Shown here in pieces: positions 28,416 to 35,969 of a stretch of 64,000 nt of DNA. How positions within the stretch are numbered: position 1 is the stretch's first letter; each line of letters starts with the position of its first letter. Position numbers and translations under genes: made by a program. The stretch is from a phage: the sequence record PV946933.1; one strand, written 5' to 3'. Under the pieces are notes generated by a model. The model searched no databases. It was not told the DNA's origin and saw only the letters and a program-made list of their open reading frames with translations.

Positions 28416-28755
28416 ATAAAGTCAAATATTCGTTTTCTGAGTCATTTTTAATTTTTGCTGTGGCGTTGGCTGCAGCTCTTGCGGGTAGTCTTTTTGGATT
28501 GTTAATTGACTGTCTTATTTTAAACATCGACGGCACAGTAAATATAACAGAAGTTTGGAGTGAGCTTTGTTATACTAAAATTATTTCATTATTTTCATTC
28601 TTTGGTATCATTTTATATTTTCATTATGATAACTTTAAAATAAATTGGCAAAGAAAAAAGGATTACAAAATACAATTAAAAGAATATAATAGCTACATTT
28701 CTTATATTGAAAATGAAGCAATGAAAGAGTTTGTGAGTGATTGCAGGAAATTAAA

Positions 28756-28759
<4 letters not shown>
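28397..28759 (+). CDS. Hypothetical membrane protein
   Basis: ORF track 120 aa; predicted TM helices. Confidence 0.45.
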
Positions 28760-29728
<969 letters not shown>

Positions 29729-31673: not shown

Positions 31674-31999
31674 TGACAGACACGCAACTTTTCGAATATC
31701 TTTATTTTTCGCCAAAAACTATTAAAAATAAATTGGTGAATCATTTTGAAATTTTGGCAAATAACAACGTCTTGAGCGAATTTTATCCTAAGCAATACAA
31801 ATTACAAAAAGGCGTATTCAAAGGATGCAGAGTTTTGTGCACTGCTCCTAATGCAAGATTAATGAATAAAATTCCATATTTTACCATGGAATTTATTGAT
31901 GGACCTTTTAAAGGACTAATCACCCAAAGTTTAATGGCATATGATTCTGAGCCATTTTTAATTAAAGAGCAATCTTGGATAAATTTATTTTCTAATTGA
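31670..31999 (+). CDS. Hypothetical protein
   Basis: ORF track frame 31619..31999; start at ATG overlapping upstream stop (ATGATG). Confidence 0.45.
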
Positions 32000-32007
32000 G
32001 AGGTTAT

Positions 32008-32370
32008 ATGAAAGCATATCAAATTCTTGAAGGCACGCATAAAGGTACTATTTATTTTGAAGATGGTATTCAAGCACGAATTATTGTCTCTAAAACTTTT
32101 AAAGAGGACTCTTTTGTAGACCCAGAAATTTTCTATGGTTTGCATGCCCGTGAAATTGAAATTGAAACACAGCCTACAGTTAAAATTGAGGGTGGTCAAC
32201 ACCTGAACGTAAACGTTCTGCGTCGTGAAACTCTGGAAGATGCAGTTAAGCATCCGGAAAAATATCCGCAGCTGACCATCCGTGTATCCGGTTATGCAGT
32301 TCGCTTTAACTCTCTGACTCCGGAACAGCAGCGCGACGTTATCGCTCGTACCTTTACTGAGAGTTTGTAA
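32008..32370 (+). CDS. Autonomous glycyl-radical cofactor protein (GrcA/YfiD-like)
   Basis: C-terminal [60 protein letters not shown] matches the E. coli GrcA glycyl-radical domain; start at MKAYQ after GAGAGG RBS. Confidence 0.8.
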
Positions 32371-32591
32371 TGGCAAAGATAATTATTGAAGGTTCTGAAG
32401 ATGTGCTAAATGCTTTCGCCGAGTGGTTTAGTAATTCAGGCGAACAGCAATTTAATGAAGCGTGGAACATGGGTGATATTAATGGAATTTATCCTACGAC
32501 AGAAATTTCTGTTCAAGGATATGGCATTCATGAACCTATTCGTTTAGTTGAATATGATTTGGGAACAGGTGAGGAAGTAAAATATGATTGA
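32370..32591 (+). CDS. Hypothetical protein
   Basis: ORF track 73 aa; acidic. Confidence 0.45.
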   Translation: MAKIIIEGSEDVLNAFAEWFSNSGEQQFNEAWNMGDINGIYPTTEISVQGYGIHEPIRLVEYDLGTGEEVKYD

Positions 32592-33656: not shown

Positions 33657-34202
33657 ATGAGAAAAGCACTACTCGCTGGTCTATTGGCCATTTCTATGAT
33701 GGCACATAGCTCCGAGCATACTTTCAGTAATGTCCAACTCGATAACATGCGTTACGCGTATCAATTCGGGGAACAATTTTCTAAGGATGGAAAATATAAA
33801 ACACATAAAAATATCCACAAGAGCGGATTAGGTCATATAATGGCTGCTATTTTATGGCAAGAAAGCTCTGCCGGAGTTAATTTAAAATCTAAACCAAAGC
33901 ATCATGCCTATGGAATGTTCCAAAATTATTTGCCGACCATGCGAGCAAGAGTTAAGGAACTTGGTTATAATATGACCGATGCCGAAATAAAAAGAATGTT
34001 GAATAAACGGTCCAATTCAGCTTCCTGGGCGTACATTGAACTTTCTTATTGGTTAAATATACATAAGGGCGATATAAGAAAGGCAATATCCTCTTATAAT
34101 TCGGGATGGAATGTTAAAGCAGGTTCTAAATATGCTTCTGAAGTCCTAGAAAAGGCTAACTACCTTAAAAATAATAAACTACTGGAAATAGTAAATGACT
34201 AA
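33657..34202 (+). CDS. Secreted lytic transglycosylase (SLT domain)
   Basis: Signal peptide MRKALLAGLLAISMMAHS; SLT motifs ILWQESSAG, AYGMFQ, SYNSGWN. Confidence 0.65.
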   Translation: MRKALLAGLLAISMMAHSSEHTFSNVQLDNMRYAYQFGEQFSKDGKYKTHKNIHKSGLGHIMAAILWQESSAGVNLKSKPKHHAYGMFQNYLPTMRARVKELGYNMTDAEIKRMLNKRSNSASWAYIELSYWLNIHKGDIRKAISSYNSGWNVKAGSKYASEVLEKANYLKNNKLLEIVND

Positions 34203-34536
34203 AATTTTGGTTTTATGTGTAGGATTAATTTCATTTTCTGCGTTAGCAGATATATCATATTCTGAAGTTAGAGAGTATGTAAACCGTACTGCCGCGGATT
34301 ATTGCGGGAAAAATAAAGCATGCCAAGCTGAATTTGCGCAGAAATTAATATATGCATATAAAGACGGAGAAAGAGATAAATCAAGCAGATACAAAAATGA
34401 TACTTTATTAAAACGATATGCTAAAAAGTGGAATACCTTAGAATGTTCAGTTGCGGAGGAGAAAGATAAAGCCGCTTGTCATTCAATGGTTGACCGTTTG
34501 GTAGATTCTTATAATCGAGGATTGAGTACTAGATGA
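34195..34536 (+). CDS. Small secreted/periplasmic protein
   Basis: ORF track 113 aa; signal peptide MTKILVLCVGLISFSALA; four Cys. Confidence 0.5.
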   Translation: MTKILVLCVGLISFSALADISYSEVREYVNRTAADYCGKNKACQAEFAQKLIYAYKDGERDKSSRYKNDTLLKRYAKKWNTLECSVAEEKDKAACHSMVDRLVDSYNRGLSTR

Positions 34537-35012
34537 TTGTAAAATATATCAAGGGCGATATTGTCGCCCTATTTCTTCAAGGTAATATTATTGCGCACGG
34601 GTGCAATTGCTTCCACACAATGGGCTCTGGCGTAGCAGGTCAATTAGCAAAAGCCTATCCCAAAATTTTAGAAATAGATAAAACCACTACCGAGTACGGT
34701 TCTCGTGATAAATTAGGCGATATGTCTATTGTTTTTAAACACAGTCCTATAGGATTTGGTATATGCTATAACCTTTATACGCAATACGAACCGGGTCCTA
34801 ATCTTGATTATGGTGCTTTAGTAAACTGCATGATAGAATTAAATCTACAGGCAGAGACCCTTTTGTTTAAACCAGTAATTTATATTCCACGCATAGGTTG
34901 CGGTATTGCTGGCGGCGATTGGGATAAGGTTTCTAAATTAATCGACATGTTTACTCCTGATATTGATTTAATAGTGGTGGATTATGAAAGTACATTACCC
35001 GCATCCGTTTGA
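34533..35012 (+). CDS. Macro-domain (ADP-ribose binding/processing) protein
   Basis: Motifs GDIV...IIAHGCN...MGSGVAGQLAKAYP and IPRIGCGIAGGDW parallel macro-domain GDIT...VNAAN...GGGGVDGAI and AFPAISTGVYGYP. Confidence 0.5.
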   Translation: MIVKYIKGDIVALFLQGNIIAHGCNCFHTMGSGVAGQLAKAYPKILEIDKTTTEYGSRDKLGDMSIVFKHSPIGFGICYNLYTQYEPGPNLDYGALVNCMIELNLQAETLLFKPVIYIPRIGCGIAGGDWDKVSKLIDMFTPDIDLIVVDYESTLPASV

Positions 35013-35196
35013 TCCTAAAAACAAAGCAGAAATTATTCGTCAATGGGAACGCATTTGCCGTACTAAATGCCCAATTAATAGTTCTCATGATGTAGATAAA
35101 GACTATATTGGAACATTCGTTGAATATACCTTTATTGATAGGAAAGGTCGTAAACAACATGTAGAAGAATATTGCTTAAAGGTTACATGGTTATGA
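34984..35196 (+). CDS. Hypothetical protein
   Basis: ORF track 70 aa. Confidence 0.4.
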   Translation: MKVHYPHPFDPKNKAEIIRQWERICRTKCPINSSHDVDKDYIGTFVEYTFIDRKGRKQHVEEYCLKVTWL

Positions 35197-35378
35197 GTCT
35201 GAGTAAAGAACAAAAAGATAAATTGTTTGAGCTTATCCATGAACTTCTAGATGAGCATACAGAAGCAAACACCTTTTATGATGAATACGGCCCGCTATCT
35301 CCCGAACAGCAAGAAGAATTTGCTGATCGGTTTGATAAGAAAGAAAATGAATTAATAGCTTATGTGAATACGCTTTAA
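35172..35378 (+). CDS. Hypothetical acidic protein
   Basis: ORF track 68 aa. Confidence 0.45.
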   Translation: MLKGYMVMSLSKEQKDKLFELIHELLDEHTEANTFYDEYGPLSPEQQEEFADRFDKKENELIAYVNTL

Positions 35379-35387
35379 GAAGGTGAT

Positions 35388-35969
35388 ATGGCGAGTTTAA
35401 TTTTTACTTATGCAGCAATGAATGCTGGAAAATCTGCTTCTCTTTTGACTGCTGCACATAATTATAAAGAACGCGGAATGAGTGTATTAGTTCTTAAGCC
35501 TGCTATTGATACTCGCGATTCTGTCTGTGAAGTCGTTTCTCGCATTGGAATTAAACAGGAAGCGAATATTATCACGGATGATATGGATATTTTTGAGTTC
35601 TATAAATGGGCTGAAGCACAAAAAGATATTCATTGCGTATTTGTAGATGAAGCCCAGTTTTTAAAAACTGAACAGGTACATCAATTAAGCCGAATTGTCG
35701 ATACATATAATGTTCCTGTTATGGCTTATGGTCTAAGGACTGATTTCGCCGGAAAATTATTTGAAGGTTCTAAAGAACTTTTGGCGATTGCGGATAAACT
35801 TATTGAACTAAAGGCAGTTTGTCATTGCGGTAAAAAAGCGATTATGACAGCTCGATTAATGGAAGATGGAACACCAGTTAAAGAAGGTAATCAAATCTGT
35901 ATTGGTGATGAAATTTATGTTTCTTTGTGTAGAAAACATTGGAACGAATTAACTAAAAAGCTCGGTTAG
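35388..35969 (+). CDS. tk: Thymidine kinase
   Basis: ORF track 193 aa; P-loop AMNAGKSASLL; recognised as T4 Tk. Confidence 0.95.
   Translation: MASLIFTYAAMNAGKSASLLTAAHNYKERGMSVLVLKPAIDTRDSVCEVVSRIGIKQEANIITDDMDIFEFYKWAEAQKDIHCVFVDEAQFLKTEQVHQLSRIVDTYNVPVMAYGLRTDFAGKLFEGSKELLAIADKLIELKAVCHCGKKAIMTARLMEDGTPVKEGNQICIGDEIYVSLCRKHWNELTKKLG

Follow-up and report, generated by a model that had tools for sequence, protein, structure and literature searches.

An allele of T4 tk.4/adfM in a T-even phage encodes a predicted macrodomain that probably reverses DarT2 modification of phage DNA

Introduction

On which ADP-ribosylated substrate does the small macrodomain protein encoded between vs and tk of a T-even phage act, and does it do so in the manner of its T4 counterpart? 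The window analyzed here, 64,000 nucleotides of sequence record PV946933.1, comes from a Tequatrovirus (T4-like) genome and carries at 34533..35012 an ORF in which a sequence-only reading had recognized two macro signature segments, both of which are present as described. Three roles had been put forward for its product: reversal of host ADP-ribosylation-based immunity, degradation of an ADP-ribose-derived signal, and editing of the phage's own ADP-ribosylation marks. Only the first has published evidence, which concerns the 58% identical T4 orthologue and the DarTG2 system; nothing that we found speaks for action on a Thoeris signal or on the marks that the phage itself sets.

A HIDEN-SEQ preprint of November 2025 describes a transposon-library screen of T4 on a host with DarTG2, from which tk.4 emerged as the single conditionally essential gene (bioRxiv 10.1101/2025.11.20.689424). 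The deletion experiment against DarTG that had been suggested as a check has thus been published for the T4 orthologue: a clean tk.4 knockout sensitized T4 to DarTG2, and the authors gave the gene its new name, adfM. That T4 Tk.4 takes ADP-ribose off DNA was proposed there by analogy, without an assay (bioRxiv 10.1101/2025.11.20.689424). T4 and T2 lacking both adfA and adfN stay resistant to DarTG2, and a further factor was predicted from that work (PMC11825919). A 2026 Cell Reports study describes PhiKZ gp104, likewise named AdfM, which strips DarT2-made ADP-ribose off DNA in vitro (PMC13309987).

Results

Genomic setting and orthology

The gene order regB-vs.1-vs-tk.4-tk.3-...-tk is identical in the window and in phage T4, and the slot between vs and tk.3 in T4 (NC_000866) is that of tk.4, labelled 'phosphatase; contains A1pp phosphatase motif'. 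The features of this block are as follows.

31996-32370, + strand: GrcA-like glycyl-radical protein, first gene in this order
33188 (start), + strand: regB
33657-34202, + strand: vs.1, with SLT domain
34195-34536, + strand: vs, directly before the macrodomain ORF
34533..35012, + strand: tk.4/adfM-type macrodomain gene, ATG start, 159 aa, coordinates including the stop codon
34533..34536, + strand: ATGA overlap of the tk.4 start codon (34533) with the vs stop codon (vs ORF end, 34536)
34984 (start), + strand: DUF7202 ORF in the tk.3 slot, directly after the macrodomain ORF
35172 (start), + strand: DUF7438 ORF, between the DUF7202 ORF and tk
35388 (start), + strand: tk, followed by rI.1, rI and rI.-1

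The window protein aligns with all 155 residues of T4 Tk.4 (NP_049723) at 58% identity and with 0 gaps (E 4e-70), is four residues longer, and shares with it both the syntenic slot (vs, then tk.4, then tk.3 and on to tk) and the invariant site residues, including Gln84. The window gene is the orthologue of T4 tk.4, now adfM (anti-DarT factor, macrodomain). We count it as already known because the macrodomain has long been annotated in T4, GenBank holds copies that are 99% identical, and a role has been published for the orthologue. Identity to Escherichia phage REP4 is 98.5% over a 2.4-kb stretch spanning the ORF, for which 755 phage records give matches, and a homologue is encoded in 2,791 phage records by tblastn, under labels that include phosphatase, macro domain protein, O-acetyl-ADP-ribose deacetylase, Poa1p-like and Tk.4.

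Through the ATGA overlap tk.4 is likely to be translationally coupled to vs, and at its 3' end it overlaps tk.3 by 29 nt, compared with 4 nt in T4. It would be expressed together with the co-oriented regB-vs.1-vs-tk.4-tk.3-tk block. Synteny with T4 is the ground for the label 'early gene', since a promoter scan of the window gave no enrichment of sigma-70-like promoter sites over shuffles.

Several neighbors deserve mention in their own right. The product of 31996-32370 is an autonomous glycyl-radical cofactor with an RVSGYAV motif (Pfam Gly_radical, E 2e-18) and 98% identity to T4 Vs.6. In the slot of T4 vs.5, a 73-aa ORF (32370-32591) matches T4 Vs.5 over 18 residues only and is, judging from this comparison, probably another small variable gene of the block. 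The vs.1 orthologue (33657-34202) goes by 'hypothetical protein' in GenBank/RefSeq; its N-terminus is hydrophobic and resembles a signal peptide, and Pfam detects an SLT lytic-transglycosylase domain in it (E 5e-5). Further upstream, at the position of T4 e.1/NudE, a NUDIX hydrolase ORF (28741-29196; Pfam NUDIX, E 7e-14) adjoins the lysozyme gene (29234-29728). T4 NudE hydrolyses ADP-ribose, and by analogy the product of this ORF could dispose of ADP-ribose made by the macrodomain.

Macrodomain fold and class

The macrodomain assignment holds by sequence, by profile and by predicted structure. Pfam PF01661 (Macro) matches with 31.1 bits against a gathering cut-off of 22 (E 2.5e-7), covering model positions 2-117 of 118, and PHROG 335 'phosphatase' matches with E 6.6e-72. 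A non-macro fold, which had been named as grounds for abandoning the assignment, was not seen: the predicted model has the macro fold, with a mixed beta-sheet alternating with helices. Its nearest structural neighbors form the ALC1-like / TARG1-DarG-Poa1p-SCO6735 class and lie clearly apart from the MacroD, viral and PARG types; coronavirus, alphavirus and MacroD-type domains come next, with scores of at most 13.6. Sequence searches of the PDB returned the same set, with Bt_1257 as the best match, and the N-terminal half of the window protein closely resembles yeast Poa1p, a phosphatase that acts on ADP-ribose-1''-phosphate. It is the phosphatase activity of Poa1p that underlies the 'phosphatase' annotation of the phage protein, which is a homology transfer.

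DarG is the best NCBIfam match and the only PADLOC match, in both cases through its macro half. From the structural neighbors, the PDB searches and a DarG score far below cut-off, we place the window protein in the ALC1-like/TARG1-DarG-SCO6735-Poa1p class of macrodomains, of which it is a member without itself being a DarG.

Conservation of the active site

To locate the site residues we aligned the window protein with T4 Tk.4, SCO6735, Bt_1257, TARG1, two DarG macrodomains and PhiKZ gp104, using reference macrodomain sequences recovered from PDB alignments and a published paper; SCO6735 residue numbering was checked against the 5E3B chain. Conservation was scored over a set of 117 full-length homologues. 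Three elements stand out.

34596..34640, + strand: first ADP-ribose-binding loop, residues 22-36 (HGCNCFHTMGSGVAG); H22, G23, N25, C26, G33 and A35 invariant, 117/117
34782..34784, + strand: Gln84 codon CAA at the catalytic position, read in the sequence and placed by profile-to-PDB alignment; Gln in 117/117
34887..34922, + strand: second, glycine-rich diphosphate-binding loop, residues 119-130 (PRIGCGIAGGDW); P119, G122, G124 and W130 invariant or nearly so

Across the 117 homologues, D49, N80, Y82 and Q84 join H22, G23, N25, C26, G33, A35, P119 and W130 as invariant positions, and G122, G124 and G127/G128 are invariant or nearly so. Loss of binding-loop residues, the other finding that would have counted against a macrodomain, was therefore not observed. 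The invariance of twelve site residues in this set points to an enzyme that is catalytically active and of the Gln type. Within the second loop the two T-even alleles differ, with GCGIAGGDW in the window protein and GAGIGKGNW in T4 Tk.4.

The catalytic column separates the reference proteins. In the window protein and T4 Tk.4 alike, Gln84 shares its column with SCO6735 Gln85 and the Gln of Bt_1257, while the same column holds Lys84 in TARG1, the 'FPTK' Lys in DarG (Lys80 in T. aquaticus) and the 'FPTK' Lys in PhiKZ gp104. The Lys84/Asp125 dyad of TARG1/OARD1 is replaced by Gln84/Ala126, with Ala126 standing in place of Asp125; Asn25 aligns with N23 of PhiKZ AdfM, and Gly23 takes the place of SCO6735 Val25. 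Mutational data are available for two of these positions, as Q85A abolishes the activity of SCO6735 (PMC9411070) and N23A lowers the activity of PhiKZ AdfM (PMC13309987). The loop that follows Gln84 has the DarG/TARG1 length and is 5-6 residues shorter than in SCO6735 and Bt_1257; eight residues lie between Q84 and Y93 in 89 of the 117 homologues, and 10-12 in the remainder.

Comparison with DarG, PhiKZ AdfM and SCO6735

Identity with DarG was considered and rejected. The DarG model NF048014 scores 28.1 bits against an equivalog cut-off of 250 and aligns at positions 2-142 of 338 only; the 159-aa window protein has no C-terminal DarT-binding domain, has Gln84 in place of the catalytic Lys, and has no adjacent darT, its neighbors being vs and tk.3. 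The DarG macrodomains of T. aquaticus and M. tuberculosis (PDB 5M31/5M3E/5M3I) are 19-21% identical to it. No DarT family match was recorded among the neighbors of one bacterial homologue, on a Pelagimonas chromosome and on a shorter copy of that locus in a sequencing-run assembly; this homologue is a stand-alone gene, which speaks neither for nor against an orphan-antitoxin origin.

PhiKZ gp104 resembles the T4-type protein in being a stand-alone phage macrodomain that counters DarTG2 and in its conserved loop-1 Asn (N23, corresponding to N25). It differs in keeping the 'FPTK' Lys where the window protein has Gln84, and in being imported into the phage nucleus of a chimallivirus. Equivalence of the two was rejected, as BLASTP finds two short local matches, the better one with E 0.001 over 23 residues. 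Because gp104 is of the DarG type, matching M. tuberculosis DarG at E 9e-25 (the window protein matches DarG at 2e-4), yet barely matches the window protein, the T4-type and PhiKZ AdfM proteins are separate lineages within one class.

SCO6735, the characterized enzyme closest to Bt_1257, removes DarT-made thymidine-linked ADP-ribose and needs Gln85 to do so (PMC9411070). Together SCO6735 and Bt_1257 (PDB 5E3B, 2FG1/2AFC) are 26-28% identical to the window protein and have the Gln at the catalytic position in common with it. Membership of the SCO6735 subclass is nonetheless tenable only in part, as the window protein has the Gln but lacks Val/Ile25 and the mobile loop, which in SCO6735 is about 5 residues longer than in DarG/TARG1. 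That loop, which bears Lys residues, has been credited with DNA binding (PMC9411070), and since the loop after Gln84 is shorter in the window protein, the Lys-bearing stretch is absent from it. Whereas the surface of SCO6735 is electropositive (PMC9411070), the window protein is acidic, with a calculated pI of 5.0.

An allelic cassette in near-identical genomes

Comparison with T4 along the locus locates a sharp break in identity within tk.4.

34592..35009, + strand: divergent allelic cassette, the tk.4 body; sliding DNA identity to T4 43-78%, flanks 87-100%
34552..34570, + strand: hairpin (AGGGCGATATTGTCGCCCT) with a GC-rich stem of 8 bp and a T-rich tract behind it, in codons 7-13 of tk.4; a terminator-like scan match

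Sliding DNA identity to T4 is 100% until the start of tk.4, 88% over its first 60 nt and 78% over the next 60, then 43-62% across 34652-35009, and returns to 87-93% from 35010. The encoded proteins follow the same pattern, with identities to T4 of 99.3% for RegB, 99.4% for Vs.1, 93.9% for Vs, 91.4% for Tk.3, 99.5% for Tk and 100% for RI.1, and of 58% for Tk.4. Because the drop in identity is confined between near-identical flanks and neighboring proteins, the tk.4 body is taken as an exchanged allelic cassette. The T-even relatives VR5 and EcWhh-1 carry alleles that are 74-76% identical to the window type, closer than that of T4. In the phage collection, the window-type allele (at least 95% identity) is found in 276 records and the T4 type in 221. 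T2, likewise resistant to DarTG2, carries an allele identical to that of T4, so the published DarTG2 phenotype covers only the T4-type allele.

The hairpin has a stem identical to that of T4 and sits just where identity to T4 begins to drop, and a terminator is annotated near it in at least one GenBank record. Since its folding energy is ordinary (z -1.2 in the window, -1.5 in T4), it was not accepted as a genuine terminator or as an unusual RNA structure. Divergence from T4 recurs in a second patch, at 35190-35380 in the region of tk.2 and tk.1; here the product of the ORF at 35172 and T4 Tk.2 share just 54% identity. Over 35196-35388 the interval from tk.4 to tk is about 373 bp shorter than in most close relatives, with one small ORF fewer than in pSe_SNUABM_01 and without a counterpart of T4 tk.1.

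Discussion

The fold, class, conserved site and orthology documented above lead us to regard the window protein as probably a DNA glycohydrolase, made up of a macrodomain alone, that acts on thymidine-linked ADP-ribose and so frees phage DNA of the marks set by DarT2. In the proposed mechanism, host DarTG2, once triggered, would act as published, with DarT2 ADP-ribosylating thymidines in TNTC motifs of phage ssDNA and thereby blocking replication. The phage macrodomain would then bind ADP-ribose in the cleft between loops 22-36 and 119-130, with the invariant Gln84 positioning the distal ribose as Gln85 does in SCO6735, and would hydrolyse the thymine-ribose bond, releasing ADP-ribose and restoring the base, so that replication could continue. 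By analogy, the 58%-identical window allele would do the same job as T4 Tk.4, and would do it enzymatically. We count against this proposal the lack of the DarG/TARG1 Lys, of the SCO6735 Val/Ile25 and of the Lys-bearing mobile loop, the pI of 5.0, and the proximity of the N-terminal half to the Poa1p phosphatase.

These differences, together with the presence of two or more tk.4/adfM cassettes (about 58% identical) in near-identical T-even genomes, allow a variant of the proposal that we consider unlikely but not negligible. The window-type allele could differ in specificity from T4 AdfM, being directed at another DarT2 clade, at another ADP-ribosyltransferase defense or at uracil-ADPr on RNA; or the family could represent a third subtype of thymidine-ADPr hydrolase, in which an SCO6735-like Gln is set on a short-loop, acidic, DarG/TARG1-like scaffold.

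Somewhat less probable still is the processing of soluble small ADP-ribose derivatives, namely ADP-ribose-1''-phosphate, O-acetyl-ADP-ribose or Thoeris-type ADPr immune signals. The 'phosphatase' label and a published study (PMC9503650) point in this direction, but the phosphatase and deacetylase names are homology transfers rather than assays, the orthologue's sole genetic phenotype is confined to DarTG2, which modifies DNA, and SCO6735, the closest characterized enzyme of the Gln type, prefers DNA substrates (PMC9411070). Reversal of RNA ADP-ribosylation, such as uracil-linked ADPr, as the main activity or beside that on DNA, would accord with the removal of uracil-ADPr from ssRNA in vitro by TARG1, DarG and, efficiently, SCO6735 (PMC13036486). 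We nevertheless hold it to be very unlikely, as no bacterial anti-phage system making U-ADPr is described in the literature we found, and the T4 phenotype maps to DarTG2, a DNA modifier.

T-even phages encode ADP-ribosyltransferases, and a macrodomain could in principle remove either the phage's own Alt/ModA/ModB marks or those of host transferases from proteins. The Alt and Mod enzymes, however, target arginine, and no macrodomain of the TARG1 class is known to cleave the arginine-ADPr linkage. Although Glu/Asp-linked ADPr on proteins is a further substrate of TARG1 and SCO6735 (PMC9411070), the TARG1 dyad for protein substrates is absent here and no phenotype supports such a role, which makes it highly improbable. 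Equally hard to credit is neutralization of DarT2 mainly through toxin binding or sequestration: inactive mutants of SCO6735, DarG and TARG1 retain inhibition of DarT in vitro, that by SCO6735 being the strongest (PMC9411070), and rapid allelic divergence of the tk.4 body would fit a protein-protein interface under selection, but the DarG C-terminal toxin-binding domain is missing and the strict invariance of the active site in 117 homologues argues for catalysis. None of these last four alternatives, from soluble ADPr derivatives to DarT2 binding, has direct support.

The window gene by itself adds nothing new, being 99% identical to deposited, annotated genes. Small points of note are the Gln in place of the DarG Lys, the lineage apart from PhiKZ AdfM, and the two divergent alleles of about equal frequency. 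In the literature that we found on tk.4/AdfM, we did not find the invariant Gln84 in place of the Lys of DarG, TARG1 and PhiKZ AdfM, the separate ancestry of the T4-type and PhiKZ AdfM proteins, or the sharply bounded tk.4 cassette. Counter-defense by phage macrodomains that strip ADP-ribose from DNA has only recently been recognized (AdfM, 2025-2026), and with T-even phages among the candidates for therapy, the tk.4 allele of a given phage is worth knowing.
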